Positions 13,360-63,091 of a stretch of 64,000 nt of DNA are shown here, piece by piece. This DNA comes from Candidatus Zixiibacteriota bacterium (GTDB taxonomy: Bacteria; Zixibacteria; MSB-5A5; UM-FILTER-46-8): contig WJIR01000314.1 in assembly GCA_014730175.1 (NCBI GenBank), forward strand, positions 92 through 64,091, written 5' to 3'. The first letter of the stretch is position 1; each line of letters begins with the position of its first letter. The notes under the pieces were generated by a model that saw only the letters and a program-made list of their open reading frames with translations, made no database searches and was not told where the DNA came from. The position numbers were made by a program, and so were the translations under genes.

Positions 13360-15207
13360 ATGACTAAAAAGAAGCCTGAAGACATTAAAGTAATTTTAGC
13401 CACCGATTGCGGCTCCACTACAACCAAGGCGATTCTAATCGAATATCGAGACGGGGAATACCGTCTCATCGTTCGTGGTGAAGCGCCTACGACGGTCGAA
13501 GCTCCATTCGAGGATGTAACGATGGGAGTGCTGAATGCTATCGCCGAGGTGGAGGAGTTATCGGGAAGAAAAATACTGGATGAAGAACACAGGATAATGT
13601 CGCCGGCAAAAGATAACACCGGCACGGATATCTACATTTCCACATCATCGGCGGGAGGGGGACTGCAGATGATGGTGGCGGGAGTGGTGCGTTCGATGAC
13701 AGCGGAATCAGCCGAACGCGCGGCATTGGGCGCCGGCGCAATCGTGATGGATGTGATAGCTTCCAATGATAAACGTCTGCCCCATCAGCAGATCGAAAGG
13801 ATACGTCATCTCAGACCGGATATGATTCTGCTATCCGGAGGTATCGATGGGGGAACCACCACCCATGTGGCGGAACTCGCTGAACTTATATCCGCTGCGG
13901 ACCCCAAGCCTCGGCTCGGTTCCGGTTACAATCTTCCGGTGATTTACGCCGGTAATAACAAGGCGCGTGAAGCTGTTAAGGAAGCGCTTGAGGAAAAGGT
14001 TGCTCTTGATATCGTCGAAAACATTCGACCGGTGCTTGAAAGGGAAAACCTGCTGCCCGCCCGCGAGAAAATCCACGATCTGTTCATGGAACATGTGATG
14101 GCTCAGGCTCCCGGTTACTCCAAGCTAATGGGATGGGCACACGCTCCGATTATGCCGACTCCCGGCGCGGTTGGTTTGATTATTAAGACTATTGCGGATA
14201 TCGAGAAAATTGACGCTGTCGGTGTGGATATAGGCGGCGCTACGACTGACGTCTTCTCGGTCTTTCAGGGAATATTCAATCGGACGGTTTCCGCTAATTT
14301 GGGAATGAGTTATTCCGTATCCAATGTCTTCGCCGAAGCTGGATTGGAAAATGTTATGAGGTGGGTGCCGTTTGATCTGGACGAACGTGATCTTCGTAAT
14401 CGAGTCAAAAACAAAATGATAAGACCTACCACTATTCCGCAGTCTCTCAGCGAACTGGTTTTTGAACAAGCTATCGCCAAAGAAGCTTTGAGGCTGGCGT
14501 TTATTCAGCACAAGAATTTCGCTACCGTGTTAAAGGGGATTCAGCAGCAGAGAACCATCGCAGACGCTTTCGATCAAACAGTCGGCGGACAGACCCTGGT
14601 TGATATGATGTCCCTGAACATGTTAATCGGCTCGGGTGGTGTGTTGTCACACGCGCCCCGCAGACAGCAGTCCGCTCTGATGATGATGGACGCTTTCCTT
14701 CCGGAGGGGATTACCCGCCTGGCGGTTGATTCGATTTTTATGATGCCCCAGCTGGGTGTACTCTCCACGATTCACGAGCAGGCAGCAACCGAGGTGTTCA
14801 ACAAGGACTGTCTGATTCATCTGGGAACCTGTATAGCGCCGACCGGCGAGTTCAAGGGCGACGGCACCGTGCTTACATATAAGTTTAAGCTTCCCGATGG
14901 AACCGTGGAGGAAGGTGAGCTTTCCTCCGGAGAAATTAAACTGATAAAGGCCGGAATCGACGAAAAATCCTCGCTTCCCGTAAAAGCGAAAGCTTCTCTG
15001 GAACCGGCAAAATCACTCGACTTAGGTGAAGGAAAAGGACACAGGACCGAAACCGAAGTTTCCGGCGGCGTGGTTGGGATCATACTCGATGGGCGCGGAC
15101 GCCCCTTTAAGCTGCCTGAGGATGAGAAGACGCGGGTAACAAAACTCAAGGAATGGATGCATGCCCTGGATATCTATGATAAGGATTTACTCGAGGAACT
15201 GGCATAA
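13360..15207 (+). CDS. ASKHA-superfamily ATPase, GlmL/MutL-like (glutamate-mutase accessory protein family)
   Basis: The N-terminus VILATDCGSTTTKAILIE matches the D-x-G-S-T-x-T-K phosphate-1 motif of GlmL-type acetate/sugar-kinase-fold proteins. At 615 aa it is longer than classical GlmL. Confidence 0.45.
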   Translation: MTKKKPEDIKVILATDCGSTTTKAILIEYRDGEYRLIVRGEAPTTVEAPFEDVTMGVLNAIAEVEELSGRKILDEEHRIMSPAKDNTGTDIYISTSSAGGGLQMMVAGVVRSMTAESAERAALGAGAIVMDVIASNDKRLPHQQIERIRHLRPDMILLSGGIDGGTTTHVAELAELISAADPKPRLGSGYNLPVIYAGNNKAREAVKEALEEKVALDIVENIRPVLERENLLPAREKIHDLFMEHVMAQAPGYSKLMGWAHAPIMPTPGAVGLIIKTIADIEKIDAVGVDIGGATTDVFSVFQGIFNRTVSANLGMSYSVSNVFAEAGLENVMRWVPFDLDERDLRNRVKNKMIRPTTIPQSLSELVFEQAIAKEALRLAFIQHKNFATVLKGIQQQRTIADAFDQTVGGQTLVDMMSLNMLIGSGGVLSHAPRRQQSALMMMDAFLPEGITRLAVDSIFMMPQLGVLSTIHEQAATEVFNKDCLIHLGTCIAPTGEFKGDGTVLTYKFKLPDGTVEEGELSSGEIKLIKAGIDEKSSLPVKAKASLEPAKSLDLGEGKGHRTETEVSGGVVGIILDGRGRPFKLPEDEKTRVTKLKEWMHALDIYDKDLLEELA

Positions 15208-25934: not shown

Positions 25935-27257
25935 CTACTTCACCAGCAACATCCGTTTGGTCTCGAAATAACCGGGGGTCATTAGCCGGTATAGATATTC
26001 ACCGCTTGCCAGCCCATTAGCTCTAAAGTTCAAAGTATACGAACCGGCATCGAGAATTCCATCATAGACTTTACATACCTCTTTGCCGAGGATATTATAC
26101 AGCCTTATACTGACGGGAGAGCGCCTGGGAACATTAAGTCCTATGGTGGTTGATTCATTGAATGGATTGGGATAATTTTGTCGTAAGCTAAATCCTGTCG
26201 AAATCGAAGCATCCGCCGATGGATTAGAACGACTCCAGATCGAACCGCCCTCCGGTCTCTCATTCAATTCTATAATCTCAACTTGATCCAAATCCGAGGT
26301 GCCCAATCCACGCTCTTCCGCTCGCTGTAGCGTCGGTTCGGCCATTGACGCCGAGAAAGTGGGATCATGTTTTTCGAGTAGATTGGCGCAATATGCGTCA
26401 GTTGCCACAATATCCCCGCAGATTATAATTCTGTCCGTATTGACCAGTACAGTCTCTTCATGAATCACAGGCCCAAATATCGTCATCAGGACTCTGGCGT
26501 CAACTATATTCAACTCGGGTCTGATCAATCCCGCTATTTCCGCCACCTCCTCCCTTAGAAACTGGCTGTGGTTGGCATGTATAAATAGCCGGGTGCCGGT
26601 TCTATTTGAGCCGGTGACTGCTCCGACATGGTTTTTGATAGCACAAGTCAAGTCAGCCTGGAAATGCTTTTTTAGATTGCAGAGGTTTATGATTATTGGC
26701 GCATCATAAACCTCCGAATATACCTCGAAATCTGGTCTTTCCTGATCCCAGGAAGGATGTCTTACATTGTAGGGATTCGAAAAAGCTATCAACTCCCCGC
26801 CTGCTTGCGGAACGATCTCATCCAAATTGAGGAAGGGGTAAACGATTTGCGGCGGTCTCCATCCCTGGTCGCCAACATATACTGTACCGTTAGTTGTGCT
26901 TACTACCGACATTATCAATTCGGTGAGAAAATCGGGATCGGTCGATGCCGGGTAGTACTGATCAGTCAGAAAATTAGGTTTTATTAGAACATCCTGATCC
27001 GAGTTAATCAGCCGACCCAATCCACCTATCGCGGTTAAGCCGGTAGCGAGCATATTATTGATGTCAGTGCCTTTGACGCATACCAATACAGGTTTACCCT
27101 CAGGTGTCACAAAGGGATTGGGCAAGCCGACTCTGGGATAAAGGGAAGGATTCAACTTACTTAGAGCTCCAACCGGATTCGCTAAAGTGAAAGCCGAAGC
27201 CATCCCGCCGGATAGCGACTTTATAAATGTTCGTCTGGATTGCGATGAATCATTCAA
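25935..27257 (-). CDS. DUF362-domain protein with an N-terminal twin-arginine (Tat) signal and a T9SS C-terminal sorting domain
   Basis: N-terminus MNDSSQSRRTFIKSLSGGMASAFTLA (SRRxFIK Tat motif); DUF362-like core (…LIKPNF…, …AIKNHVGAV…R…H); the C-terminus LRQNYPNPFNESTTIGL…GEYLYRLMTPGYFETKRMLLVK is a type-A T9SS sorting domain. Confidence 0.6.
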   Translation of the reverse strand: MNDSSQSRRTFIKSLSGGMASAFTLANPVGALSKLNPSLYPRVGLPNPFVTPEGKPVLVCVKGTDINNMLATGLTAIGGLGRLINSDQDVLIKPNFLTDQYYPASTDPDFLTELIMSVVSTTNGTVYVGDQGWRPPQIVYPFLNLDEIVPQAGGELIAFSNPYNVRHPSWDQERPDFEVYSEVYDAPIIINLCNLKKHFQADLTCAIKNHVGAVTGSNRTGTRLFIHANHSQFLREEVAEIAGLIRPELNIVDARVLMTIFGPVIHEETVLVNTDRIIICGDIVATDAYCANLLEKHDPTFSASMAEPTLQRAEERGLGTSDLDQVEIIELNERPEGGSIWSRSNPSADASISTGFSLRQNYPNPFNESTTIGLNVPRRSPVSIRLYNILGKEVCKVYDGILDAGSYTLNFRANGLASGEYLYRLMTPGYFETKRMLLVK

Positions 27258-27342: not shown

Positions 27343-28671
27343 TTATTTAACCAACGTCATTGATTTCGTTTCCATTATTCCCGGCGCCGATAAACGATAG
27401 AAATATTTACCGCTGGGTAAGCCGTTGGCGTTGAAGGTTACCGTGTGGGAACCGGCGTGATAAATATCATGTGTTATTGTCGTAACCTCCTTTCCTAACA
27501 TATCATATAGTCTGATATCAATGGGCGCGCTCCGACGCGTCTTGAACCTGATAGACGTGGTTGCATTAAATGGATTCGGATAATTCTGCTCCAGAGCAAT
27601 TGCATCGGGTACGCCGTTCAAATCCGAGTAATGCGGCTTTGAGGATATAGAACCGCCTATAGGTTGTTCGGGAAGTTCGATAATCTCAACATCATCCAAA
27701 CTCGATACACCCAATCCCAGCTCTATCGCCCTATCTATTGTTGGTTCTATCATCTCCGCATCGAAAGTAGGATCGTATTCTTGCATCACCTGTGCGCAAT
27801 ACAAGTCGGTCGCAATTATATCGCCACAGAGAATAAGTAAGTTGGCATCGGCGAGAATTGTGTCCTCATTTGGAGTAGGTCCATAAATTGTCATGATGGT
27901 GCGGGCATCCACAATACATAACTCCGGATTAACCAATCCTGCTAATTCCGCTATATCCTGAAAAAGATGTTCATCGTTGTTCTCATGTATATATGAACGC
28001 GTACCTACTCGATATGGACCATTGACGGTCCCAACATGATTTTTCAGGCAGCATGTCAATTTGGCGTGTTCGCGGCCATGTCTCTTTAGCGTCGGCATAT
28101 TGATAACGATCGATGAATCATATATATCGCTCCAAACTTCAAAATCCGGCTTCTGAGGATGCCATGATAGCCTTCTGACATTATAAGTTTGTTCAAACAT
28201 CACCGGCACACCTCCGGCCTGACTTACAATCCCTTCGACATCAAGGTAGGGATATACTATATCGGCAGGGAGATATCCCTGATCCCCTACCTTAATTGAG
28301 CCCGAAGATACCTGCTTTATTACTTGTATCACCTCGACAATCGCTTCCAGCGACGTTGTTGTGGGATAGTACTGGTCAACCACAAAATTCGGATTTATGA
28401 GACAATCCTGATTTCCGTCGAAAAGCAAATCCAATCCGCCCAATGCACTTAAACCGGTATGCAGCATGGCTCTTAAATCAGTGCCTTTGACCGCTGCTAA
28501 AATCGGCTTGCCTTCATTGTTTACAAACGGATTCGGGATTCGCTCCCGTGGTCCCACGGTTTTACCGCTTGCGGCAAAAATATAGCTGTAAGGATGAAAT
28601 GCAATTAGAGATGCCGCTCCTCCGGACAGGATTTTCAGAAAATCCCTCCTGGAATTAGATTTGTTCCACAT
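27343..28671 (-). CDS. DUF362-domain protein with a Tat signal and T9SS sorting domain (tandem paralog of the gene at 25935..27257)
   Basis: N-terminus MWNKSNSRRDFLKILSGGAASLIAF (a textbook SRRxFLK motif) and the same DUF362 core; the C-terminus LEQNYPNPFNATTSIRF…GKYFYRLSAPGIMETKSMTLVK is a T9SS sorting domain. Roughly 45-50% identical to the neighbouring gene by eye. Confidence 0.6.
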   Translation of the reverse strand: MWNKSNSRRDFLKILSGGAASLIAFHPYSYIFAASGKTVGPRERIPNPFVNNEGKPILAAVKGTDLRAMLHTGLSALGGLDLLFDGNQDCLINPNFVVDQYYPTTTSLEAIVEVIQVIKQVSSGSIKVGDQGYLPADIVYPYLDVEGIVSQAGGVPVMFEQTYNVRRLSWHPQKPDFEVWSDIYDSSIVINMPTLKRHGREHAKLTCCLKNHVGTVNGPYRVGTRSYIHENNDEHLFQDIAELAGLVNPELCIVDARTIMTIYGPTPNEDTILADANLLILCGDIIATDLYCAQVMQEYDPTFDAEMIEPTIDRAIELGLGVSSLDDVEIIELPEQPIGGSISSKPHYSDLNGVPDAIALEQNYPNPFNATTSIRFKTRRSAPIDIRLYDMLGKEVTTITHDIYHAGSHTVTFNANGLPSGKYFYRLSAPGIMETKSMTLVK

Positions 28672-39891: not shown

Positions 39892-40800
39892 TTGGAAGTA
39901 TGCGAGATGGACTCAAGCTCCGGAAAATATTCAAAATGCCGATTTGTGGTTATAGCCGATAGCTTCAGCCGGGATTTGCTCCGGAAGTATCTTGAAAGCC
40001 AGGGATTATTGGTTATTGCGCTGGATAGCGGTACTCCGTGGACTGAAATAATAAAGAAAGTTAAGTTACACCACGCAACATCTCTGGTAACCGTAAACTG
40101 CAGTCATATCAATTCGGCTCCGAAAAATGAGCTGAATGATATCCAATGGCTAAACCTTCACTTCGGTAAGTTACCGGACTACAAGGGGAAAATGCCGGTT
40201 CAACGAGCTATCTTAAACGGAGAAATGGAGATAGGCATCACCCTTCACACCATTGATATGGCAAAATCCTGTATCGGCATTGTCGATGTCGCCACCACGC
40301 CGATTTTCAGAGAGGACACGGCGGCATCCCTTTACAGCAGATGTTCGGAAATCGCAGAACGAATGATTAAGAAGCATTCATACAGCTTGATAAACTGCGC
40401 CATTCTCGAAAGTCAAAGGATCGCATTTGAGAGTAGAAATTGGTCAGAAGGGATTCCTCTGCCCGATAGAATAAATTGGGAAAAAACAGCCCATAATATC
40501 TACAACCTGATTAGAGCATTCAATCTACCCGCATACGGTGCAAAGAGCTCGTTGCGTGGCGCCGGGATAACCATCTGGTCATCAGAAATTGCCAGTCCTT
40601 TCAATCCCGAAGTTTCGCCCGGGATGATTTTGGATATCGGCGAAGATATGCACTTGGAGGTTGCTACCGGCAGCGGTATCCTACGGCTTCTTGATTTCGC
40701 TTTCGATGAGGATATTAAGCCCTCACCAGGGGATTGTTTTAGCAGTGATAAAGACTATTTTTCGCCATTTAATGAAAGGATTCCTGTTTGCGCAAATTGA
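39892..40800 (+). CDS. formyltransferase-family protein (Fmt/ArnA-N-like; sugar N-formyltransferase candidate)
   Basis: Has the core NLHFGKLPDYKGKMPVQRAILNGEMEIGITLHTIDMAKSCIGIVD, i.e. the formyltransferase catalytic Asn/His/Asp region (HxSLLPxxRG…G…TGVTxH…D-GxI). It sits in a sugar-modification operon. Confidence 0.7.
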   Translation: MEVCEMDSSSGKYSKCRFVVIADSFSRDLLRKYLESQGLLVIALDSGTPWTEIIKKVKLHHATSLVTVNCSHINSAPKNELNDIQWLNLHFGKLPDYKGKMPVQRAILNGEMEIGITLHTIDMAKSCIGIVDVATTPIFREDTAASLYSRCSEIAERMIKKHSYSLINCAILESQRIAFESRNWSEGIPLPDRINWEKTAHNIYNLIRAFNLPAYGAKSSLRGAGITIWSSEIASPFNPEVSPGMILDIGEDMHLEVATGSGILRLLDFAFDEDIKPSPGDCFSSDKDYFSPFNERIPVCAN

Positions 40801-42149
40801 GATTGTCAGCGCCGGACACTACGAATTCGAATCGGAGGAAACCGACCGGCGAAACACTTCCACCGAAATATAGCGGCAGACCTGCAGGGGAAAAGCGCTT
40901 TTTCAATCGCATGAATCAGGTTGACCGGTCGTTGATCGAAGAGTGCAATGAATTGCTCAGGTCCAATAGCATCGGCGCCGGTTTGAAGATCAGAAAGTTG
41001 GAAAGCCACCTGACAGAATCCTTTCAGGTGCCGTATGCCAGAGCCGTCATCACCGGGGCGGCGGCGCTTCACTTGATACTGCTGTCTCAGGATATCGGAT
41101 TCGGTGATGAAGTAATAATCTCCGCGCTTTCCCCGCCGTATCTTGCCAATTGCATAGTGCAGTCAGGAGCTAAGCCGATTTTGCTCGATGTGAAATCCAA
41201 TGGTTTCAACATGGATCCTGAACGAATTGAGCCTGCAATTACACCGAATACTCGAGCTATCGTGGTGGTGCATTCGGGCGGAGTTCCAAGCGATCCGGAG
41301 ACGATCTACAGAATCGGCGCGAAGCATGATCTTCGCATTATCGAGGACGCATCACTGGCAGTGGGAAGCGAGTACAAGGGGAAGAAAATCGGTAGTTTCG
41401 GAAATTTCACTTATTTTTCGCTATCCAAAATGCAAAAGGGAGGACTCTGCCCGGGAGGCGTGATTATCGGTGCCGAGAGTGATGCTTTCGACAATATCGA
41501 CAGAATGCTTAATGATGGGATCGATTTCCGTACGCTTCAATCAGCCGGGGCTGATTGCGAAATTGCTTGCTGCGGCTACGAGTACGCTTCCAACGATTTA
41601 GCTGCCGCAATCTTCCTGCATCAATTTATGAAATTGGAGGAACTTATCGGAGCAAGGAAGAAACATGCAAAACATTATGAGCAAGAGCTGAGGGAAATTG
41701 AGGGTTTGGTTTTGCCTGAGGAGAAACCAGGTAATCGAAATAGCTGGTTTAATTACCCGGTAATAGTTGACCATACGATTTATCCATTAAGCAAAACTGA
41801 TCTCCGGGATTACCTCGTAGCTGAAAATTTGGAAATAGAATCGGAAGTTATTAAGCCGTTGCATTTACATAAATATTATAGAAACAGGTTTGGATATTCT
41901 GCCGGGGATTTTCCAAATGCCGAGAATAACTGGAATAATTCGATTTTTCTTCCGACTAATCCCGGTTTAAAGGATAAAGATATCTCGGATATAGTGACGG
42001 CATTGAAGAGGATATTGAAATATTATAGAATTCAGAATCGGAGGAGACATGATATCGGTACTTATACAGACGGAGATAGAATCAAAGAATTCGCCGAACC
42101 TCTGCATGCACCCAATTTTGGGACGTCCGATAATAGAGCTGATTATTGA
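40788..42149 (+). CDS. DegT/DnrJ/EryC1/StrS-family PLP-dependent sugar aminotransferase (SpsC-like)
   Basis: GDEVIISALSPPYLANCIVQSGAKPILLDV…HSGGVPSD…IIEDASLAVGSEYKGKKIGSFGNFTYFSLSKMQKGGL places the PLP Lys in SLSK. The first ~40 codons overlap the upstream gene, so the real start is probably the Met at about 40911. The C-terminal 33 codons overlap the next gene. Confidence 0.75.
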   Translation: MRKLRLSAPDTTNSNRRKPTGETLPPKYSGRPAGEKRFFNRMNQVDRSLIEECNELLRSNSIGAGLKIRKLESHLTESFQVPYARAVITGAAALHLILLSQDIGFGDEVIISALSPPYLANCIVQSGAKPILLDVKSNGFNMDPERIEPAITPNTRAIVVVHSGGVPSDPETIYRIGAKHDLRIIEDASLAVGSEYKGKKIGSFGNFTYFSLSKMQKGGLCPGGVIIGAESDAFDNIDRMLNDGIDFRTLQSAGADCEIACCGYEYASNDLAAAIFLHQFMKLEELIGARKKHAKHYEQELREIEGLVLPEEKPGNRNSWFNYPVIVDHTIYPLSKTDLRDYLVAENLEIESEVIKPLHLHKYYRNRFGYSAGDFPNAENNWNNSIFLPTNPGLKDKDISDIVTALKRILKYYRIQNRRRHDIGTYTDGDRIKEFAEPLHAPNFGTSDNRADY

Positions 42150-42792
42150 AAGGCTACGATCTTGTAATGGAATTGATAGAATAGTTGTCGTTGGCGGCCG
42201 TTCGGAGGAGTATGACGAACTCCAATCATTGTGCGATATTCTTGATGTTCCTATCTATCGCGAAGACGATTATGGAATGCTGAGGAAACTGTATAATGCT
42301 TCCAAGAGCTTTGATAGTGAAGCGATGGTCAGAGTTTTAGCTAATTACCCCTTGGTGGACCCTAACCTCGTAGATGATGTCGTTAATCTCTATTTGAATA
42401 ACAGGAAGAAGTACGATTATTGCAGCAATATTAATCCGCGGACATTTCCGAGGGGCCTTGAGGTAGAGTTGTATCCGGTTCAGACCATGGAGAAACTTTT
42501 CAACTGCTGTGATGATAACCTCTCTATGGACGAGTATCCGAAAGTCCTGCTGAAGAATCCCGAGGAGTTCCGGATCGGGAATGTATCCGATGGGATTAAT
42601 CGTTCGATGATGCGTTGGGTGGTTGAGAATCTCGATGATATAAAGTTTGTCACCGAAATATACAAAGCGCTTTACAGTCCGGGAGACTGTTTCGGTAGAG
42701 ATGAGGTCTTCAGACTATTAAGAGAGCATCCGGAACTGATGGCGATAAATGCCGAAGAAAAGACAACAGGTGTCAAACTAAAAAACGCTTAA
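42049..42792 (+). CDS. SpsF/PseF-like cytidylyltransferase (acylneuraminate cytidylyltransferase family)
   Basis: …ANYPLVDPNLVDDVV…RTFPRGLEVELY…MRWVVENLDDIKFVTEIY lines up with SpsF (…CPLIDPEVIDRV…RTYPRGLDTEVF…LRWTVDTEEDLEFVRAIY). Confidence 0.7.
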   Translation: MISVLIQTEIESKNSPNLCMHPILGRPIIELIIERLRSCNGIDRIVVVGGRSEEYDELQSLCDILDVPIYREDDYGMLRKLYNASKSFDSEAMVRVLANYPLVDPNLVDDVVNLYLNNRKKYDYCSNINPRTFPRGLEVELYPVQTMEKLFNCCDDNLSMDEYPKVLLKNPEEFRIGNVSDGINRSMMRWVVENLDDIKFVTEIYKALYSPGDCFGRDEVFRLLREHPELMAINAEEKTTGVKLKNA

Positions 42793-42846
42793 GGCTGTGT
42801 TTATATTTCCGACTATATAAAAGAAGGTTTTATTGGAGGGATGTGG

Positions 42847-42890
42847 GGCGGAAGCGGAGCCCGGCGGCTCCGCTTCTTTGTCTCCGCCAA
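42847..42890 (+). terminator. intrinsic terminator after the sugar-modification genes
   Basis: GAAGCGGAGCC-CGGC-GGCTCCGCTTC, an 11 bp perfect stem, followed by TTTGTCTCC; the outer GGCGG…CCGCC extends the stem. Confidence 0.55.
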
Positions 42891-43156
42891 GTACGATATA
42901 AATCCCTCGATTGTAAGAATATTGTAATATCCGGGTAGTTCAAAATAAACCAAATTTGCAAGCACTTTCAACAATTGAACATTCAAATGCCGCGTTCTTC
43001 AGTCGAAAAACAATATACGGTTTCCGGAGGACCCGGAATAATCAACGGAATTTTAAGGAATATAGAAATTTGGTGGGAATTATCTCAAAGAATATATAAA
43101 AATCACTATGTTCTGTCGAAAGGGACTTTCAAACTAAAAAATAGTGGCGGGTAAAC

Positions 43157-44572
43157 ATGATTAAAGAGAATTTGCTATTGTTAAGGCGTCTACATTTAGC
43201 GGCAGACCTAACACTGACAGCTCTGGCATTCTGCATTAGCTTCCTTATATTTTTCACAATCGATTCAAATCCTTACGGTGTACTTCAGGACTTTCAAGCT
43301 AACCTTCATTTATTGATCCTGATCATACCGTTGTGGTTGGTCTTTCTGATTAAATCCCCTAAAGCGTATGAATACAGGATGAAGTCGTACCCATTTATCC
43401 TTATGGAAGCGCTTAAGCCCTGCTTGATGGCTTCTGGAGTCTTAATCGGATATTTGATGCTTACCGGTGAATTGGTTCCGATTCGAAACCATATTATTCT
43501 ATTTATTATTTTAGACATTTTATTCCTACAATTGTTCAGGCGGTTCATTCAGCGCATGTTGCAGCATTTCCGCATGCGCGGTAATAATCAGAAAAATATC
43601 CTGATAGTCGGTACCGGCAGGCAAGCATGCGAGTTTTTCGATTTAGCCAAAGCCAACAGCCAATGGGGTATTAACGTATTAGGTTTTGTTTCGGAAAATG
43701 GTGATCGTCCGTATAACGGTAAGTCAAGCCTGGTGATCGATAAATTACCGAACCTCTCACATATTTTAAACCGCAATCCCGTGGATGAAGTCTATATAGG
43801 GCTTCCGATGAAGTCGTTTCATAAGGTGGAGGATGTTATCGCTCAGTGCAGGGAGCAAGGAATAACGGCGCATGTTGCTACCGAATTCTCCAATACTCCG
43901 GTTCCTTATCTTTCCAGTGATCTCCTTGGAGCGCCGGTACTCAGCTTTTATTCCGTATCCCGCAAGATAACTCCGGTATTCTGCAAGAGGGTTCTGGATA
44001 TAATTGCGTCAGGGATACTTCTAATTCTCCTGGCGCCAGTCTTTGCGCTGGTTGCAATTGCAATAAAAATCGACTCCAGAGGACCTGTATTTTATCGGTG
44101 GAGAGTGGTTGGACACAATCGCAAAGCGTTTACCGGCTACAAATTTCGCAGTATGGTAACAAATGCTGACGAGATAAAAGTTAAACTGATGGAAAAAAAC
44201 GAAATGAAGGGCGTTGTTTTCAAAATGAAAAGTGACCCGCGTATAACGTTTGTCGGAAGATTCCTGCGCAAGTATTCTATCGATGAACTTCCACAATTGT
44301 ATAATGTCTTCAAAGGCGACATGTCGCTGGTCGGACCTCGCCCACCGCTGCAAACAGAAGTAGAAAGTTTCGCGAACTGGCATCGAAGAAAACTATCGGT
44401 CAAGCCGGGTATTACATGCCTATGGCAGGTCTCGGGAAGAAATCGTATAAACAATTTCGATGACTGGGTCAAACTCGACCTGGAGTATATCGATAAATGG
44501 TCACTATGGTTGGATTTCAAGATATTAGCTCGCACTATCCCCGCGGTGTTTACCGGTAAAGGGGCGAGTTAA
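43157..44572 (+). CDS. polyprenyl-phosphate sugar-1-phosphate transferase (WbaP/WcaJ/EpsL 'bacterial sugar transferase' family)
   Basis: Has N-terminal TM helices, a Rossmann-like linker, and the C-terminal catalytic domain …RWRVVGHNRKAFTGYKFRSMVTNAD…PRITFVGRFLRKYSIDELPQLYNVFKGDMSLVGPRPP. Confidence 0.85.
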   Translation: MIKENLLLLRRLHLAADLTLTALAFCISFLIFFTIDSNPYGVLQDFQANLHLLILIIPLWLVFLIKSPKAYEYRMKSYPFILMEALKPCLMASGVLIGYLMLTGELVPIRNHIILFIILDILFLQLFRRFIQRMLQHFRMRGNNQKNILIVGTGRQACEFFDLAKANSQWGINVLGFVSENGDRPYNGKSSLVIDKLPNLSHILNRNPVDEVYIGLPMKSFHKVEDVIAQCREQGITAHVATEFSNTPVPYLSSDLLGAPVLSFYSVSRKITPVFCKRVLDIIASGILLILLAPVFALVAIAIKIDSRGPVFYRWRVVGHNRKAFTGYKFRSMVTNADEIKVKLMEKNEMKGVVFKMKSDPRITFVGRFLRKYSIDELPQLYNVFKGDMSLVGPRPPLQTEVESFANWHRRKLSVKPGITCLWQVSGRNRINNFDDWVKLDLEYIDKWSLWLDFKILARTIPAVFTGKGAS

Positions 44573-44599
44573 CGGTTCGATATTGCCAGTCATTGCCTG

Positions 44600-45769
44600 T
44601 TAAATTATCATTGCAAAATAACTTGAAACTATACCAGCCGCTCTGGCGTACGCGCCCGGCTCTCCCAATAACTCACGGATTTTAAGCGCATTGTTTCGTG
44701 CCTCCTGCCAGGCCGTTCCATCGGTAAACAGCGGCAAGAGCGCATTATACAGGTTTCCGGGATGAGCATCATTCTGTATGAATTCCGGAACCGCTCGTCT
44801 TTCAGCAATTAGATTCACCATAGCGATATATTTCACTCGCACCATGACGCGGGCTATAGCGTAGGTCATCAAGCTGGTTTTGTACATGACGACCTGCGGC
44901 GTGCCATGAAGCGCAGCTTCGACCGTCGTAGTTCCGCTGGTCACCAGGGCGGCATCGGAGGCGAACAAAACATCCGATGAATTCCTTTTTATGATTACAG
45001 GATTGACCGTTCTAAAACTGCTTGTGTTTTCAAACTCATCAATGTTCACATTCGATGACAATGCTATTATTGTTTTCAGTCCTGTAATATCCTTCGCCAG
45101 TAGAGAAGCTGTCCGCAGCATGGTTGGCAGTATCTTTTCAACTTCCTGCTTCCGCGAACCGGGAAACAGACCCAAGGTGGGTGAGTTATTGTCAATCCCT
45201 CGAGAATGTAAAAGAGATATTTTCTTCTCTGCCCTCTGATGCTCGTTTAGCAGAGGGATTCTTTCAACCAAAGGATGTCCAACATATTCAACATCAACGC
45301 CGTGTTGTTTATAGAATTCTTTCTCGAAGGGGAAAATCGTGATCATCTTTTCGGTATATTTTCTGATATCATTCACCCGGCCGGTGCGCCACGCCCAGAC
45401 CTGTGGGCTGATGAAATATATCACTTTGATTCCCAAAGGATGAATCGCTTTCGCTAATCTCAGATTGAAGCCTGAATAATCGACGATTATAACCAGGCTT
45501 ATATCGTTTCCCCGAATATGCTTAACGGTTCTATCCAGCAGTTTCTTGAAGCGGTATAGATTAGCGATTACACCGCCGAATCCCATGACGGAATAATCGC
45601 GATAGTCCTCGATTATTTCAACGCCGGCTGTACGCATTTTATCCCCGCCCATGCCGGTCATTACGATGTCGGGATGAAGCTTCCTGAGCTCCTCCGCCAA
45701 ACCGGCAGCATGCATATCCCCCGATGCTTCTCCAGCGCTGATGTAGATTCTGGGTGGTTTATTTATCAC
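44600..45769 (-). CDS. lpxB: lipid-A-disaccharide synthase
   Basis: PRIYISAGEASGDMHAAGLAEELRKLHPDIVMTGMGGDKM is the LpxB N-terminal signature. Confidence 0.9.
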   Translation of the reverse strand: MINKPPRIYISAGEASGDMHAAGLAEELRKLHPDIVMTGMGGDKMRTAGVEIIEDYRDYSVMGFGGVIANLYRFKKLLDRTVKHIRGNDISLVIIVDYSGFNLRLAKAIHPLGIKVIYFISPQVWAWRTGRVNDIRKYTEKMITIFPFEKEFYKQHGVDVEYVGHPLVERIPLLNEHQRAEKKISLLHSRGIDNNSPTLGLFPGSRKQEVEKILPTMLRTASLLAKDITGLKTIIALSSNVNIDEFENTSSFRTVNPVIIKRNSSDVLFASDAALVTSGTTTVEAALHGTPQVVMYKTSLMTYAIARVMVRVKYIAMVNLIAERRAVPEFIQNDAHPGNLYNALLPLFTDGTAWQEARNNALKIRELLGEPGAYARAAGIVSSYFAMII

Positions 45770-57716: not shown

Positions 57717-59204
57717 TTACCATACGGTTTCAGCCGGTTGGACTTCCTGCTTGTCTTTATCATCGGAATTCGATGCACTCTCCTTCATCGATTCTTTCTC
57801 CTTATCGGCGCGCTTCCTGAAACGGGCAGGCATGATCTTTAACTCTTCCCTATACTTACTAACTGTCCGGCGCGCTATTTTTATTCCTTTTTCGTCTAAA
57901 ATCTTCTTAATTTTTTGATCGGGCAATGGACGCTTGGAATCTTCTTCACTTATTATCTGAGCTATTAGTTGCTTGACATTCCTCTTCGAGAGTTCCTCGC
58001 CATCATCGGTTGATACGCCGGAATTGAAGAAATATTTAATCTCGAATACACCCATTGGAGTCTGAACGTATTTACCATTAGCTACACGAGACACCGTCGA
58101 TGTATCCACCTCGATCTCCTCGGCTATATCTTCCATTCTTAGAGGTTTGAGATGAGATTCGCCATGTTCAAAGAACTCCTTTTGAGCTTCTACTATCGCT
58201 CTCATTGTTTTAAGCATCGTGGAACGACGTTGATTTATGGCGGATAGAAACCAGCGTGCCTGATTCAGTTTCTCTTTTATATATTTCTGGGTTTCTTCGC
58301 CTTTTTTATCATCCTTTTTTAAATAATCGCGATAAGCGTTACTCACTTTTAACCTGGGCATATTCTTATCATTATAAATTATAACGAATTCATCATCTAT
58401 TCGTTCCACGATTAGGTCGGGGACAATAGCTACCGCAGGAGCGGAAAACCTCCCCATCGCTGGTTCAGGCGCTAATTGCTTTATATCTTCAAATGCCGCA
58501 TCTATTCTATCCTGCGGGACCTTTAATAATCGTGCCAATTGACTATGGCTTAATTTATCCAGCCGATCAAAATAATTCGCTACTATAATATAGGGAAGAG
58601 TTCCTACCATCTCCTTATTGTTCATCTGGATCAGTAACGATTCCTTCAGGTTCCGGGCTCCCACGCCAGGCGGATCGAAACCCTGTATTACGCTCAGCAC
58701 CCTCCAAACCTGCAATTCGTCCACCGAGAGGGCTTCTGCGATTTCATCCACATCGCAGGTCAAGAATCCGGCTTCATCGAGGTTACCGATAATAAAGCGC
58801 CCGATAAGTTTCTCATTATCATTGAGTTGAGCGTAAGATAGCTGGTCGTTTAGATGCTCGTACAGATTCTTTTCCGAAGCGGGGATTTGACTTTCGTAAT
58901 CTTCGCCTTCCTCATTATTACCCCGCCATTTCGGCGCATTAATCTCGTGATCCTCCCCAAAATACGTCTCCCAATCGATTTTATCCAGTTCCGGATCGGT
59001 GGATTCTTCTTCCTGTGAGGAATCAAGCTCAGCATCGGTTTCGTCAATATTGATCTCTTCCTCTAACATCGGATTTGCCGAAAGCTCCTGTCTAAGAATT
59101 TGCTCCAGTTTCAAAATCGGAACCTGCAGCATATTCAGAGACTGAATCATCTGCGGCGCCAGAGTTAACTGTTGCTTAAGTTGTTGACGCTGCGATAATT
59201 TCAT
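57717..59204 (-). CDS. rpoN: RNA polymerase sigma-54 factor
   Basis: Region I MKLSQRQQLKQQLTLAPQMIQSLNMLQVPILKLEQ, an acidic region II, and the C-terminal RpoN box ARRTVSKYRE. Confidence 0.9.
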   Translation of the reverse strand: MKLSQRQQLKQQLTLAPQMIQSLNMLQVPILKLEQILRQELSANPMLEEEINIDETDAELDSSQEEESTDPELDKIDWETYFGEDHEINAPKWRGNNEEGEDYESQIPASEKNLYEHLNDQLSYAQLNDNEKLIGRFIIGNLDEAGFLTCDVDEIAEALSVDELQVWRVLSVIQGFDPPGVGARNLKESLLIQMNNKEMVGTLPYIIVANYFDRLDKLSHSQLARLLKVPQDRIDAAFEDIKQLAPEPAMGRFSAPAVAIVPDLIVERIDDEFVIIYNDKNMPRLKVSNAYRDYLKKDDKKGEETQKYIKEKLNQARWFLSAINQRRSTMLKTMRAIVEAQKEFFEHGESHLKPLRMEDIAEEIEVDTSTVSRVANGKYVQTPMGVFEIKYFFNSGVSTDDGEELSKRNVKQLIAQIISEEDSKRPLPDQKIKKILDEKGIKIARRTVSKYREELKIMPARFRKRADKEKESMKESASNSDDKDKQEVQPAETVW

Positions 59205-59845
59205 CTCTCCCCCCTGATATGATAGAATTGTTGCTTAATAGAATTATCGGTAACAATTATTGTGTGATAATTGAGTGCTTCCGGTCTATCCCAAATTGTA
59301 TAATCGATGATCATTAATGTATTCAAATCCAATTGTGAGTTGCTTCTCCATTTGGTCCTATATATAATTTAGCAAAAATTAAGCAATTGTCAACAAAAAT
59401 ACATTTCTAATGCGCAATCTGGTAAATTACTTGCTTGTAGAATCCTAATCTACCGAGTTATTGATCGAAAACAGGGAATATCCGGTTCAAATCAGAAGAC
59501 GATTGTCGTTTCTCTTTTAATCTGCATAATTTACAAATAATTTGATTCGGAAGCTACAAATAAAGGAATTTATGAATAGTACAGGTTAGGTCATAAAATA
59601 TCAATTTAGTGCAATTAATTTTAATTCTCCTAAAAGCTATCAGACTCATCAAGCCGCTGCTTGGTCATATCGGTAACATGAATTACATTATCCGATTCAA
59701 TAGAAGTACAATCATTTTCTCCAAACCTGCTCATTGAGATTCCGTTTTTGAATAGATCATTTAGCATTGAACTGCCTTTAATTAAGAAAGTGCTTCGGCT
59801 TGTTTGTATCTTGACTATTCTCAATAGGATAGTTATCTTTATCTT

Positions 59846-60724
59846 ATGGCAAAACTAAGAGATTATGTCATCGCTTGCAGGCCAGCCCAATGGGTTAAAA
59901 ACGGTCTTGTGTTTGCTGGGTTGATTTTTGCAGTTAAGTTTACCAATCCAACGCTGGTTGCGCGAGCTATCGTTGCGTTTATAGCATTCAGCTTCTTATC
60001 AAGCGCTGTTTATTTATACAATGATATTCAGGATCGAGAGTTTGACCGGGCTCATCCCAAGAAAAAAAACCGTCCTATTGCAGCCGGAAGAATCCCTATA
60101 TGGAGCGCATACTTATTGTCATTTGTGTTGGCGGTACTTTCCCTTTCGGTTTGCTTCTATATTAACAATCCCCTGGGCATCATCGCCTTATCATATATGA
60201 TTATGAATATCCTTTATTCGCAATTCTTGAAACAGATTGTTATTCTGGATGTCATGATTATTGCCATCGGTTTTGTCCTGAGAGCTGTAGCCGGAGCTTA
60301 TGCGGTAAATGTCTCTATCTCGCCATGGTTGTTAATCAATACAATCCTGCTTGCGCTTTTTCTCGGATTCGGAAAAAGACGTTACGAAGTCGTACTTCTG
60401 GATGCAAATAAAACTAATCACCGTAAAATACTGGATCAATACAGTTTGCCATTTCTGGATCAGATGATATCGGTCACTACAGCATCGTCAGTTGTCATTT
60501 ATGCTATGTACACTATGTCCATCGATGCGAAGTTTGCGGCAAAGAATATGCATCTGGAACTAACGATTCCTTTTGTAGTATATGGAATATTCAGGTATCT
60601 TTATATAGTTTATCATAAAGCGGAGGGAGGATCTCCCACTGAAGCCTTGGTTGCCGATAGACCGATATTGGTAAATATCATCTTGTGGTTGGCTGCAGTT
60701 ATTTTAATCTTTATGTTATCATAA
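59846..60724 (+). CDS. UbiA-family prenyl-phosphate phosphoribosyltransferase-like protein (decaprenyl-phosphate 5-phosphoribosyltransferase / DPPR-synthase-like)
   Basis: Eight to nine TM helices and the motif YLYNDIQDREFDRAHPKKKNRPIAAGRI, which is the NDxxDxxxDRxHPxKxxRPIAxG variant characteristic of the Rv3806c-type subfamily of UbiA enzymes. Confidence 0.7.
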   Translation: MAKLRDYVIACRPAQWVKNGLVFAGLIFAVKFTNPTLVARAIVAFIAFSFLSSAVYLYNDIQDREFDRAHPKKKNRPIAAGRIPIWSAYLLSFVLAVLSLSVCFYINNPLGIIALSYMIMNILYSQFLKQIVILDVMIIAIGFVLRAVAGAYAVNVSISPWLLINTILLALFLGFGKRRYEVVLLDANKTNHRKILDQYSLPFLDQMISVTTASSVVIYAMYTMSIDAKFAAKNMHLELTIPFVVYGIFRYLYIVYHKAEGGSPTEALVADRPILVNIILWLAAVILIFMLS

Positions 60725-60734
60725 AAGGAAGAAA

Positions 60735-61814
60735 ATGAAGAAAGCTAAAGTAGCGGTTTTAAAAACAAAACCGGATTCAGTAATTGAGGATCATATAAAA
60801 CTCGGGAGGATGGCGGGGATTAGCGAATCTTTGGAAAAAGGTAAAACCACCATCCTCAAGGATAATATATCCTGGCATTTTCCTTTCCCGGGAGCAAATA
60901 CCACCCCATGGCAGTTGGAAGGCTGTATCAGGGCGCTGCAGGACGAAGGATACGCCGATCTGGTTGATGTCCATAATGATACCGTAGTGACCGATCCTTA
61001 TAAAGGCGAAAAGCTGAATAAATACGATGTCGTCTACAAGAAATATGATATACCGGTTAAGTATAATTTCAAGAAAGAGGATATCAGGTGGGAACGGTAT
61101 GAACCCGAAGGCGAGATGATCGCGCTGAAGGAAATATATCCTAAGGGAATTTATATACCGGAATTCTTCAGGGATAAGAACATCGTCCACCTGCCCACAG
61201 TGAAATCGCATATCTATACCACCATGACCGGCGCTATGAAAAACGCCTTCGGGGGATTGCTAAATACCCGCCGCCATTATACCCACAGCGTAATCCACGA
61301 AACATTGGTGGACTTACTGACAATCCAAAAGGAGATTCATAGCGGTTTATTCTGTTTCATGGATGGCACCACCGCCGCCTCCGGTCCCGGACCCCGCACC
61401 ATGACTCCGGTGCAAAAGGATGTGATTATGGCATCGGGCGATATGGTAGCGATCGATGCAGTATCGGCTAAAATCATGGGATTCGACCCGATGGAGATTA
61501 AATGTATCCGGCTTGCGCACGACAGGGGATTGGGGATCGGGAATTTCGATGAGATTGAAATCGTGGGCGAGGATGTATCCGATTGGAATTTCAATTTTAC
61601 GGTAGGCGATAATATGCCGTCATTGGTGGGAGACCTGCTCTGGTATTCGCCGCTGAAAGTACTGCAGAAGCTGTTTTTCCACACTCCTTTAGTATACATA
61701 TTTGTTTTCGCTTCGTTCTTTTATCACGATTATCTCTGGTATCCGATAAAAGGACGGCAGATAGTCAATGACTGGCTGAAAACCGAGTGGGGGCAGTTGT
61801 TCGAGAGGTATTAA
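60735..61814 (+). CDS. DUF362-domain protein (cytoplasmic paralog; no signal peptide or sorting domain)
   Basis: …ILKDNISWHFPFP…, …VKSHIYTTMTGAMKNAFGGLLNTRRHYTHSVIHETL…, …GFDPMEIKCIRLAHDRGLG… is the same conserved core as the two Tat/T9SS genes at 25935..28671. Confidence 0.55.
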   Translation: MKKAKVAVLKTKPDSVIEDHIKLGRMAGISESLEKGKTTILKDNISWHFPFPGANTTPWQLEGCIRALQDEGYADLVDVHNDTVVTDPYKGEKLNKYDVVYKKYDIPVKYNFKKEDIRWERYEPEGEMIALKEIYPKGIYIPEFFRDKNIVHLPTVKSHIYTTMTGAMKNAFGGLLNTRRHYTHSVIHETLVDLLTIQKEIHSGLFCFMDGTTAASGPGPRTMTPVQKDVIMASGDMVAIDAVSAKIMGFDPMEIKCIRLAHDRGLGIGNFDEIEIVGEDVSDWNFNFTVGDNMPSLVGDLLWYSPLKVLQKLFFHTPLVYIFVFASFFYHDYLWYPIKGRQIVNDWLKTEWGQLFERY

Positions 61815-61909
61815 AACCAAAGCCAAAGAATGCCCTAAAATGTTGATTATTGTACCCTAATAGGGTAGATTTGTACCGAAATTGGGTACAGATAAGAGGA
61901 TGACAATAA

Positions 61910-62266
61910 ATGATTCAAATTCTTTACATGATAGGCGCGATACTGCTCAATGTTTGTGGACATTCCTTCCTCAAAGCCGGGATGACGCGGGTGGGCCCTA
62001 TAACCGGAAGTTTTCTACATTATGCGTATAATGCGGTTACGACTCCGCTGGTTATATTGGGGCTGTTCAGCTATGTGGCATCGGTAAGTTTATATATGCT
62101 GGTACTCTCCAAAACCGACCTTTCTTTTGCATACCCGCTTTTGATGAGTATCGGGTACGTATTGATTGTGCTGGTTTCATTTTTAATATTCAAAGAGCCA
62201 TTTTCCGCATACAAATGGGTCGGAATCGTATTGATTTTAATCGGGGTGATATTGGTGGGGAGGTAA
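61910..62266 (+). CDS. small 4-TM SMR/EamA-like transporter (ArnE/ArnF-like flippase-subunit architecture)
   Basis: 118 aa with four hydrophobic helices and a small-multidrug-resistance-like fold (…FLKAGMTRVG…, …FAYPLLMSIGYVLIVLVSFLIFKE…). Confidence 0.45.
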   Translation: MIQILYMIGAILLNVCGHSFLKAGMTRVGPITGSFLHYAYNAVTTPLVILGLFSYVASVSLYMLVLSKTDLSFAYPLLMSIGYVLIVLVSFLIFKEPFSAYKWVGIVLILIGVILVGR

Positions 62267-62376
62267 TAAGCAAAATATTCACTAATTATTCATCATATAA
62301 TAATTCTCCACAGGAACACGAGGTAGTTTCCTGATTATAAACGTCAAACCAGAAGCCGCTGTGAATTAGTCTGATA

Positions 62377-62709
62377 ATGGTCAAGGATAAGAAAATACGA
62401 AATCTGATAGAATCGCTGGCGAAGAAGATTGTTGATGCTTATGATCCGCTTAAGATTATTTTGTTCGGATCATATTCCTACGGCAATCCCGACAAAGACA
62501 GCGATATCGATCTTCTAATCATTAAAGAGACTTCCGAAAGACCGATTGATAGGCGTGTGGCGGTTAGCAGTATAATTTCTGATCGTCAGCTTCGGACTCC
62601 TGTTGAGCCGATTGTTCTTACTCCGAACGAGTTAGAGAATAGAATGAGGATCGGTGACCAATTCGTACAGGAGATTTTGGATAAAGGGGATGTCCTGTAT
62701 GAAAAGTGA
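62377..62709 (+). CDS. nucleotidyltransferase-domain antitoxin (MNT-type) of a type II/VII toxin-antitoxin pair
   Basis: KIILFGSYSYGNPDKDSDIDLLII is the polymerase-beta-like nucleotidyltransferase GSx9-13Dx(D/E) motif. Confidence 0.75.
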   Translation: MVKDKKIRNLIESLAKKIVDAYDPLKIILFGSYSYGNPDKDSDIDLLIIKETSERPIDRRVAVSSIISDRQLRTPVEPIVLTPNELENRMRIGDQFVQEILDKGDVLYEK

Positions 62710-63091
62710 GGAATCCAGATATTTCGGTGACTGGTTCAGAATCGGCGCAAAGGAAATCGAGCGAGCCAAAAGATTATTGGAAGACGGCGATCTTGATGCA
62801 GCAGGATTTAATATACAGCAAGCGGTTGAGAAATATATAAAAGGTTACCTTCTGTCCAAAGGATGGGAGCTTCGTAGGATTCACAATCTTGATATACTTT
62901 TAAACGATGCCATGGATTACGAACCTTCGCTCGATGAATATCGTCAGGATTGCATTAAAATAACTCATTATTATGTCGAGGATCGATATCCCTTCACGGT
63001 AGCTTCCGAGTTAACTAAAGAGGAAATCAAGGAGTCGCTGCAAGTCGCTAAGAAGTTAATCAAGAAAATCGTCTCTTTAACTGAAGAATGA
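62654..63091 (+). CDS. HEPN-domain toxin partner of the upstream nucleotidyltransferase
   Basis: An alpha-helical protein with the R-x4-HN motif (ELRRIHNLDIL). The likely true start is the Met at about 62690-62699, overlapping the nucleotidyltransferase stop by a few nucleotides. Confidence 0.7.
   Translation: MTNSYRRFWIKGMSCMKSEESRYFGDWFRIGAKEIERAKRLLEDGDLDAAGFNIQQAVEKYIKGYLLSKGWELRRIHNLDILLNDAMDYEPSLDEYRQDCIKITHYYVEDRYPFTVASELTKEEIKESLQVAKKLIKKIVSLTEE

Follow-up and report, generated by a model that had tools for sequence, protein, structure and literature searches.

A predicted UbiA-family phosphoribosyltransferase paired with a conserved DUF362 subfamily in a candidate lipid-linked pentose operon of Zixibacteria

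For the DUF362 protein family, neither an assigned function nor a solved structure was found in the literature, and the question raised by the locus described here is whether the company of such a protein can place it in a pathway. The locus lies in a stretch of 64,000 nucleotides (nt) from a Candidatus Zixiibacteriota bacterium (contig WJIR01000314.1), hereafter called the window, in which a UbiA-family prenyltransferase gene, a DUF362 gene and a gene for a protein resembling the small multidrug resistance (SMR) family follow each other on the forward strand. An earlier interpretation of the letters alone (the sequence-only reading) had described this trio as a candidate module for lipid-linked pentose phosphate, and our analysis confirmed the gene arrangement. 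The UbiA and DUF362 genes are paired in at least eight phyla, and the trio is, on balance, probably a self-contained operon that makes and exports a polyprenyl-phosphate-linked pentose, as a variant of the three-component pentofuranose glycosylation pathway. The new element is the partnership with DUF362; the clade of the synthase and a non-actinobacterial route to polyprenyl-phospho-pentose, which the sequence-only reading had put forward and which the synthase fits, were already known (PMC11127046).

The first open reading frame (ORF) of the trio (59846-60724, + strand) encodes a membrane enzyme of 292 amino acids (aa), assigned to the clade of polyprenyl- or decaprenyl-phosphate 5-phosphoribosyltransferases (PPPRS/DPPRS). 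Its TAA stop codon (60722-60724) and the ATG of the DUF362 gene at 60735 enclose a spacer of 10 nt (60725-60734, + strand, aaggaagaaa), one fewer than the 11 nt of the sequence-only reading, which had otherwise placed the three ORFs correctly. The spacer contains the Shine-Dalgarno sequence AAGGAAG, which argues for co-transcription and coupled translation of both genes. The DUF362-subfamily ORF (60735-61814, + strand; 359 aa) encodes a protein with a LarA-type fold and an aromatic-rich C-terminal tail, and is followed after 95 nt (61815-61909, + strand) by the SMR-like ORF (61910-62266, + strand; 118 aa), whose product is a candidate flippase.

The window UbiA protein passed both NCBIfam equivalog models for DPPRS (NF008977, 295.8 bits with a cutoff of 234; NF008978, 218.8 bits with a cutoff of 207), and its scores on all non-DPPRS models were at most 53 bits (heme O synthase 47.6, 4-hydroxybenzoate UbiA 38.5, DGGGPS 34.5, MqnP 33.6, ChlG 33.2 and MenA 17.1). 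Similarly, the best sequence match in the PDB was Rv3806c of M. tuberculosis (8j8j; E=6.9e-40 over UbiA residues 8-285), followed by the archaeal AfUbiA (9e-7) and a DGGGP synthase (1e-3). Using the 8j8j alignment, we mapped the residue roles in the site for phosphoribosyl pyrophosphate (PRPP) and Mg as given in the Rv3806c structure paper (PMC10994848), and found 10 of 12 residues identical and the remaining two conservatively replaced. The Mg2+ ligands N59 and D63 (N73 and D77 in Rv3806c) belong to an N-D-x-x-D motif and are invariant in 32 relatives; they lie in the segment NDIQDREFDRAHPKKKNRPIAAGRI singled out in the sequence-only reading, residues 59-83 of the 292-aa protein. The pyrophosphate-binding Lys/Arg cluster (R12, K73, R76, K129 and K194 for Arg22, Lys87, Arg90, Lys143 and Lys208) is identical throughout, as is Y124 for Tyr138. 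Among the four phosphoribose contacts, K18 and Y56 are identical to Lys28 and Tyr70, while N121 stands for Gln135 and F143 for Tyr157, the latter position being occupied by Phe in some mycobacteria as well (PMC10994848). The 5'-phosphate and ribose contacts of Rv3806c are not conserved in ordinary UbiA prenyltransferases (PMC10994848). On these sequence comparisons, the window protein belongs to the Rv3806c (DPPRS/PPPRS) clade and not to the quinone, heme or DGGGP clades, so that the assignment made in the sequence-only reading holds. It is not a new one, since the NCBI name of the protein already is decaprenyl-phosphate phosphoribosyltransferase. In Pfam and NCBIfam searches, the protein consisted of the UbiA domain only, with no fused HAD domain; the long UbiA ORFs of two other loci (L038, L147), considered as synthase-HAD fusions, were rejected after no extra domain was found in them.

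The partnership with DUF362 emerged from comparing gene neighborhoods around both genes. A scan of one genome per species yielded 588 relatives of the window DUF362 protein, and the loci of the best 80, all at least 60% identical and distributed over more than 12 phylum-level groups, were analyzed together with the window (81 loci) by clustering all six-frame ORFs within 6 kb instead of curated annotations. A DPPRS-like UbiA gene was the only widely conserved DUF362 neighbor in this set. It was present in 40/81 loci, corresponding to 40/74 loci with at least 1.2 kb of upstream DNA and 24/49 loci with at least 3 kb on both sides, and was nearly always located on the same strand directly upstream of DUF362, with a gap of at most 250 nt in 33/40 cases and often of 0-30 nt. 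These loci derive from Zixibacteria, Acidobacteriota, Bacteroidota, Ignavibacteria, Chlorobiaceae, Bacillota (including the isolate Sporomusa sp. KB1), Planctomycetota, Thermodesulfobacteriota, Armatimonadota and Spirochaetota. Starting from the synthase in 80 metagenome loci whose UbiA proteins are 44-55% identical to that of the window, a full-length DUF362 gene lay directly downstream in 19 of the 48 loci with enough downstream DNA; these DUF362 proteins fall into two types, which share 65-69% and 40-49% identity, respectively, with the window protein. Since same-strand adjacency, mostly at 0-250 nt, recurs in at least eight phyla with differing flanks, the pairing is far beyond chance. The two genes are linked and nevertheless separable: in a syntenic block of PurD, a zinc-ribbon protein, a STAS protein, UbiA, an optional DUF362, an unknown protein and two GT4 genes, DUF362 is present in five loci and missing in four.

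The full trio was found in seven loci (L001, L002, L019, L081, L086, L087 and L161). L161, the closest relative (81% identity), preserves the order UbiA-DUF362-SMR although every flanking gene differs from the window, which marks the trio as a self-contained unit. The co-conservation named as a test in the sequence-only reading was thus observed broadly for the pair and in a handful of loci for the trio; the SMR-like gene itself accompanies DUF362 in only 8/81 loci, or about 10%. Other recurring neighbors were set aside as lineage synteny outside the module, namely MsrP/MsrQ-like genes (identified by eye) between UbiA and DUF362 in L026 and the genes for MutL, methylmalonyl-CoA mutase, IspF and FtsY near the Bacteroidota-group loci. 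A full-text literature search found no paper linking DUF362 to polyprenyl-phosphoribose synthases; the mentions of "DUF362" in the TmAT paper are irrelevant prefix matches to DUF3623.

The window DUF362 protein matches Pfam PF04015 at 85.5 bits and shares 64-81% full-length identity with homologues from Zixibacteria, Schekmanbacteria, Glassbacteria, Acidobacteriota, Halanaerobiales and others. The family is large: at a clustering level of 50% identity, the library contains 4,752 clusters with a match to this protein at E<=1e-3 and 264 at E<=1e-30. Among 58 UbiA-linked copies, 68 positions are at least 97% conserved, including K42, N44, N81, T83, H152, K157, H159, K169, N170, R180, H181, H184, H188, D193, H202, D210, R221, D236, D241, H331 and D332, with K169 and H159 conserved in all copies (100%). 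Copies without a linked UbiA gene keep all 25 key positions compared at 90% or more and the catalytic-candidate residues at 100%, so that they represent the same enzyme. The invariant His/Lys/Asp site is a candidate active site.

The position of inteins points to the same region. Seven DUF362 relatives (P0242, P0243, P0246, P0248, P0250, P0306 and P0341), whose host proteins are 36-62% identical to the window protein, carry an intein exactly between K157 and residue 158 (LPTVK/C…HN/[CT]H; PTVK/[CST]H), either as a mini-intein of ~175 aa or in an endonuclease-size form of ~400-520 aa. The site corresponds to 61203-61208 in the window (codons K157/S158), where the DUF362 gene is free of inteins. 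Inteins favor catalytic or cofactor sites, and the insertion point therefore probably marks the center of the enzyme. We found no report of inteins in DUF362 proteins in the literature. Several other long representatives (P0314, P0274, P0357, P0266, P0334 and P0390) had been considered as Rosetta-stone fusions and were rejected as frameshifted or chimeric metagenome calls; two of them, P0274 and P0266, exposed an LPG_synthase_TM gene downstream of DUF362.

An AlphaFold2 model of the window protein (pLDDT 85.7, pTM 0.89) was compared with the PDB using Foldseek. The top matches were LarA lactate racemases and LarA-like nickel-pincer enzymes (probability 0.97-1.00, E 2e-4 to 1e-2), led by 9eid (E 2e-4, probability 1.00) and 9eia (5e-4, 0.99), then 9q3k and 9q3j, with TM-scores that are low (0.32-0.38). 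By sequence, no DUF362 relative was found in the PDB even at E<=1. DUF362 and LarA share the Pfam clan CL0471 (PMC11770544), and genuine LarA proteins match the Pfam DUF362 hidden Markov model (HMM) over residues 82-245, the part holding His108, His174, Lys184 and His200, at about E=1e-5. The window protein has neither a signal peptide nor a transmembrane (TM) segment, consistent with the cytoplasmic location assumed in the sequence-only reading. Its last 74 residues are 26% aromatic (F/W/Y), compared with 9% elsewhere, and hold the most hydrophobic stretch, which suggests that the tail serves as an interfacial membrane anchor.

Two further DUF362 ORFs are located in tandem on the reverse strand of the window (25935-27257 and 27343-28671), as counted in the sequence-only reading. 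Both are distant relatives (E=1e-10 and 5e-8 against the subfamily HMM) of a different, secreted subgroup: each combines a twin-arginine signal (SRRTFIK and SRRDFLK, respectively) with a DUF362 domain and a C-terminal sorting domain of the type IX secretion system (Por_Secre_tail). The combination of a signal for twin-arginine translocation (TAT) with such a tail is unusual, and the TAT route is typically taken by proteins that receive a cofactor prior to export. The idea that these paralogs are Sec-exported and hence cofactor-free was rejected because their N-termini hold the twin-arginine motifs. Both keep K157, H159, K169, N170, R180, H188, D210, D236 and D241. Owing to their distance and different subgroup, the synthase-linked context is not transferable to them. 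The functional context that the sequence-only reading had envisaged for DUF362 is thus gained for the synthase-linked subfamily and does not extend to the whole family.

The third protein of the trio matches Pfam Multi_Drug_Res (PF00893) at 44.8 bits (cutoff 23.7), and its top three NCBIfam models are ArnF (46.4 bits, cutoff 99), EbrB and ArnE (34.5 bits, cutoff 92), with ArnF and ArnE below their cutoffs. Three segments exceed a strict hydropathy threshold, in addition to a weaker first helix. Glu14 is essential in proton-coupled drug-exporting SMR proteins such as EmrE. In an alignment with what we take to be the EmrE sequence, Asn14 of the window protein stands at the position of Glu14. Proton-coupled drug export is thus an unlikely function, and the protein fits among the flippase-like SMR members. 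Its gene, 95 nt downstream of DUF362, occupies a position that is filled differently in other lineages. A 10-TM EamA protein is encoded in the same downstream position in 12 Bacteroidota-group loci, and LPG_synthase_TM, the family of the MprF flippase domain, lies beside DUF362 in 13 loci, seven of them without a nearby UbiA gene; under stricter criteria, one of the three membrane proteins flanks DUF362 in 32/81 loci. The replacement at the same position and the missing Glu14 strengthen the flippase role suggested in the sequence-only reading, and we regard the SMR-like protein as a candidate flippase for a lipid-linked sugar. It resembles the undecaprenyl-phospho-4-amino-4-deoxy-L-arabinose (L-Ara4N) flippase ArnE/ArnF in size, in its four predicted helices, in the SMR Pfam match and in the missing drug-coupling glutamate. 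Unlike ArnE/ArnF, it falls below both equivalog cutoffs, is a single gene and not a heterodimer pair, and would carry a different cargo.

Potential consumers of a lipid-linked sugar are encoded close to the pair in several lineages. Glycosyltransferases of the GT-C type (PMT_2 or related) occur in or near the operon in 14/81 loci. In five Acidobacteriota loci, giant ORFs of ~1,100-1,900 aa with 9-21 TM segments, composed of PMT_2 and DUF2298 domains (plus an NHL beta-propeller in some), directly follow UbiA-DUF362 (L034:5270-9226, L037:11163-16100, L038:5871-10721, L068:10102-15885 and L028:10779-14036), and their products are candidate consumers of the lipid-linked pentose. In L039, a PMT_2 protein is encoded between DUF362 and UbiA, and the remaining GT-C loci show PMT_2, YfhO or 12-TM/TPR proteins within a few kb. 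GT4 genes follow the pair in the Acidobacteria-like block. A block headed by a STAS-domain gene always contains, between UbiA(-DUF362) and the two GT4 genes, a conserved protein of ~300 aa without a Pfam match that begins with MTDFSIRSDNVDVEQIMRQIR (metagenome loci L095, L113, L116, L118, L123, L128, L133, L136 and L138). The picture for phosphatases and epimerases is different: among the 77 nearest same-strand ORFs flanking UbiA-DUF362 pairs, none of the HAD, PAP2, DprE1 and short-chain dehydrogenase/reductase (SDR) families recurs (25 most frequent families). Genes of the dprE1/dprE2 type, which the sequence-only reading had brought up from the mycobacterial pathway, are therefore not part of the conserved context, and DUF362 is left as the only conserved soluble partner of the synthase.

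Altogether, these observations can be arranged into a four-step pathway. The UbiA enzyme would very probably move 5-phosphoribose from PRPP onto polyprenyl phosphate on the cytoplasmic side of the membrane. Judging from gene linkage and fold, DUF362, held at the membrane surface via its aromatic tail, would then convert the lipid-linked 5-phosphoribose head group. The SMR-like protein would flip the product to the outer face, where, as relatives suggest, a GT-C enzyme encoded elsewhere would use it to decorate an envelope glycan or protein. For the second step, we tentatively prefer a cofactor- or metal-dependent epimerase or isomerase acting at a sugar hydroxyl over a phosphatase, although with less than even confidence. 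With the same reserve, a single LarA-like DUF362 protein may do the job of DprE1/DprE2 or of the Citrobacter ORF13 epimerase. A more specific version, in which a LarA-related epimerase with a tightly bound cofactor (nickel-pincer-like or another hydride-shuttling center) acts on polyprenyl-phospho-(5-phospho)ribose by inverting a hydroxyl in one redox-neutral step, appears unlikely at present.

Several findings weigh against this proposal. There is no GT-C gene among the annotated ORFs of the window, where annotation covered 55-64 kb and part of 18-54 kb, with 1-18 kb and 46-50 kb outside the scan; the GT-C genes that the sequence-only reading had called for were seen in the same operon in several other lineages. 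A partner is missing nearby in about half of the loci anchored on DUF362 and in more than half of those anchored on the synthase, a count of loci and not of whole genomes. In two Bacillota loci, an ABC1/UbiB-type atypical kinase, for which the model has no role, lies between synthase and DUF362 (L062:8821-10014 in Sporomusa sp. KB1; L066:8835-9995), followed by LPG_synthase_TM; UbiB-family proteins are tied to the handling and homeostasis of prenyl lipids. A first hhalign run of the DUF362 alignment against LarA was non-significant (E=0.59). A search for LarA homologues gave only sequences with 77% identity or more, a set too narrow to be useful. With broader profiles, the alignment was again non-significant (E=0.07); it placed H159 opposite His174, K169 opposite Lys184 and H184/H188 opposite His210/His214, and H181 or H184 could stand for His200, with no clear equivalents of His108, Asp72 and Arg75. 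The subfamily HMM built from window-type DUF362 proteins did not detect LarA. The LarA C-terminal substrate domain is missing from DUF362: neither Lar_N (PF09861) nor LarA_C (PF21113) matched the window protein, which hit only PF04015 even at E up to 10. Likewise, tblastn (E<=1e-3) detected no LarA, LarB, LarC or LarE gene in the window or in 162 related loci (1.8 Mb), so that the neighborhood gives no direct support for the use of a nickel-pincer cofactor by DUF362.

Which other explanations could account for the same gene order? One possibility is that DUF362 is the missing 5'-phosphatase acting on polyprenyl-P-ribose-5-P, in place of the HAD phosphoribose-phosphatase (PRP) domain or the PAP2 protein Rv3807c, so that the donor would be polyprenyl-P-ribofuranose without epimerization. 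In all characterized systems, the phosphatase is the tightest-linked partner of the synthase, either fused or adjacent (PMC11127046). Here, a HAD domain is missing from the synthase, and genes of the HAD or PAP2 type do not recur near the pair. The many invariant His, Asp, Arg and Lys residues of DUF362 would suit metal and phosphate binding, and because the LarA domain binds the phosphoribosyl part of the nickel-pincer nucleotide (NPN; PMC12611868), a phosphoribosyl pocket in DUF362 may plausibly have been inherited. However, a simple phosphatase would not usually be as conserved across phyla as DUF362 (60-81% identity), and the TAT signals of the paralogs speak for a cofactor that is loaded beforehand. 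To our knowledge, a phosphatase with a LarA fold has not been described. Moreover, Rv3807c is dispensable and the Citrobacter D18A mutant is partly functional (PMC11127046), indicating a weaker selection than the conservation of DUF362 suggests. Taken together, we consider the phosphatase function rather unlikely, and the epimerase or isomerase remains our tentative preference.

Two alternatives would change the pathway as a whole. The pair might make a membrane lipid or lipid-anchored end product, a modified polyprenyl-phospho-pentose that is flipped as a structural or signaling lipid without any GT-C step. Most loci, including the window and L161, indeed show no GT-C gene near the trio, LPG_synthase_TM belongs to the flippase-domain family of MprF, which exports a finished lipid, and the UbiB-type kinase between UbiA and DUF362 in L062 and L066 would suit such a product. 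This explanation is nevertheless improbable in view of the additional conserved operon genes, which, where present, encode GT-C or GT4 glycosyltransferases, and of the fact that GT-C genes are commonly encoded away from the genes for donor synthesis. The known products of PPPRS enzymes are, moreover, all glycosyl donors (PMC11127046). A very improbable explanation, in our view, is adjacency without a shared pathway, with DUF362 as a housekeeping enzyme for an unrelated substrate that is merely co-transcribed with the synthase. It could draw on the 31/81 loci in which none of the associated genes lies near DUF362, on the syntenic block in which DUF362 comes and goes between the same neighbors, and on a degree of conservation that resembles core metabolic enzymes. 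It conflicts with the near-zero-gap, same-strand adjacency in at least eight phyla while other neighbors change, with the linkage of two DUF362 types that share only 40-49% identity, and with the UbiA-less DUF362 loci, which still hold LPG_synthase_TM and PMT_2 genes for lipid-linked-sugar functions. The proposed lipid-linked pentose operon thus remains the reading that we favor.

Compared with known systems, this operon is closest to the three-component systems described by Kelly et al. (PNAS 2024), in which a polyprenyl-phosphoribose synthase with a phosphatase, a flippase and a GT-C enzyme are joined by optional epimerases, and for which the authors draw a parallel to mycobacterial arabinan synthesis and to the arabinosylation of Pseudomonas pilin (PMC11127046). 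In Citrobacter youngae O1/O2, the system consists of ORF15-ORF14-ORF12 and the ORF13 epimerase (PMC11127046). Like the Citrobacter system, the Zixibacteria locus has a UbiA-family synthase predicted to convert PRPP into lipid-linked ribose and a membrane protein assigned as flippase; a GT-C consumer is found in the operon of several relatives, and auxiliary enzymes can change the sugar. Unlike in Citrobacter, there is no HAD phosphoribose-phosphatase domain and no PAP2 protein, and the conserved partner is a DUF362/LarA-fold protein, for which the systems described so far have no counterpart. SMR-like, EamA or LPG_synthase_TM proteins take the place that a MATE protein has as flippase in Citrobacter, GT-C is missing from the annotated ORFs of the window, and the carriers mostly belong to uncultivated phyla (Zixibacteria, Acidobacteriota, Ignavibacteria and others).

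With the mycobacterial decaprenyl-phospho-arabinose pathway (Rv3806c, Rv3807c, DprE1/DprE2 and Rv3789), the operon shares a synthase that is homologous over its full length with the PRPP/Mg sites kept, a small four-helix membrane protein nearby and the presumed principle of making a lipid-linked pentose on the cytoplasmic side and using it outside. In contrast, no homologue of the PAP2 phosphatase, of the flavin adenine dinucleotide (FAD)-dependent DprE1 or of the SDR protein DprE2 recurs near the pair, and the lipid is presumably undecaprenyl and not decaprenyl phosphate. If DUF362 is an epimerase, the oxidation and reduction that take two enzymes in mycobacteria would fall to one LarA-like protein. 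With the LarA superfamily (nickel-pincer nucleotide, CL0471), DUF362 shares the cofactor-domain fold, as the best PDB fold matches suggest, and, in a weak alignment, a His-x9-Lys motif where LarA has the catalytic His174 and the cofactor-tethering Lys184. Unlike LarA, it has no Lar_N or LarA_C domain, the aromatic tail taking the place of the C-terminal substrate domain; equivalents of His108, Asp72 and Arg75 are not evident, LarB, LarC and LarE are missing nearby, and the presumed substrate is a lipid-linked sugar phosphate and not a 2-hydroxy acid.

Within the operon, the region between DUF362 and the SMR-like gene may add a layer of regulation. The spacer at 61815-61909 contains two adjacent palindromic hairpins, TACCCTAATAGGGTA and TGTACCGAAATTGGGTACA, the latter at 61872-61890 and present as a single copy in the window. 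Its predicted RNA fold (-20.2 kcal/mol, z = -2.66) encloses the Shine-Dalgarno region ahead of the SMR-like gene in a stem, and in the relatives L001 and L002 the spacer is only ~25 nt long. The hairpin spacer could be an element for translational control or RNA processing. No terminator-like site was found between the genes of the trio, promoter-like sites were at chance level, and an Rfam scan of 59100-62400 returned no riboswitch or other family. Upstream of the trio, genes for rpoN, a ribosome hibernation factor and HPr kinase, which were identified by eye in the translations, are located on the opposite strand. Directly downstream, on the + strand, follows an overlapping pair of an MntA-like nucleotidyltransferase gene (62377-62709) and a HEPN gene (62654-63091), similar to type VII toxin-antitoxin systems, which is missing at the locus of the closest relative (L161). 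Elsewhere in the window, 15-20 kb upstream of the trio, an envelope-glycan cluster at 39892-45769 encodes a formyltransferase (ArnA-N-like), a DegT/ArnB-like aminotransferase, a Bac_transf initiating sugar transferase and LpxB. Besides that, the region 7274-15207 contains three paralogous ORFs of ~605-615 aa (7274-9091, 9619-11439 and 13360-15207), each followed by an ORF of ~155-165 aa.

The pairing provides the first pathway context for a sharply defined and unusually conserved DUF362 subfamily, as the partner of a lipid-linked phosphoribose synthase. It also names a candidate substrate, polyprenyl-P-ribose-5-P, whose synthesis in vitro is possible with farnesyl phosphate (PMC11127046). Whichever reading holds, the intein site and the 68 near-invariant residues appear to point to the active site of the enzyme. 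If DUF362 is a phosphatase, it would represent a new phosphatase fold. As an epimerase, it would offer an alternative to DprE1/DprE2, which is among the leading targets for tuberculosis drugs, and would allow lipid-linked arabinofuranose or xylofuranose in many phyla without these enzymes; LarA-type chemistry would then extend from 2-hydroxy acids to lipid-linked sugars. More generally, our results suggest that lipid-linked pentofuranose pathways, so far described for mycobacteria, Pseudomonas pilin and enterobacterial O antigens, also occur widely in Acidobacteriota, Bacteroidota/Ignavibacteria/Chlorobi, Planctomycetota, Bacillota and candidate phyla, where they would operate with another accessory enzyme.

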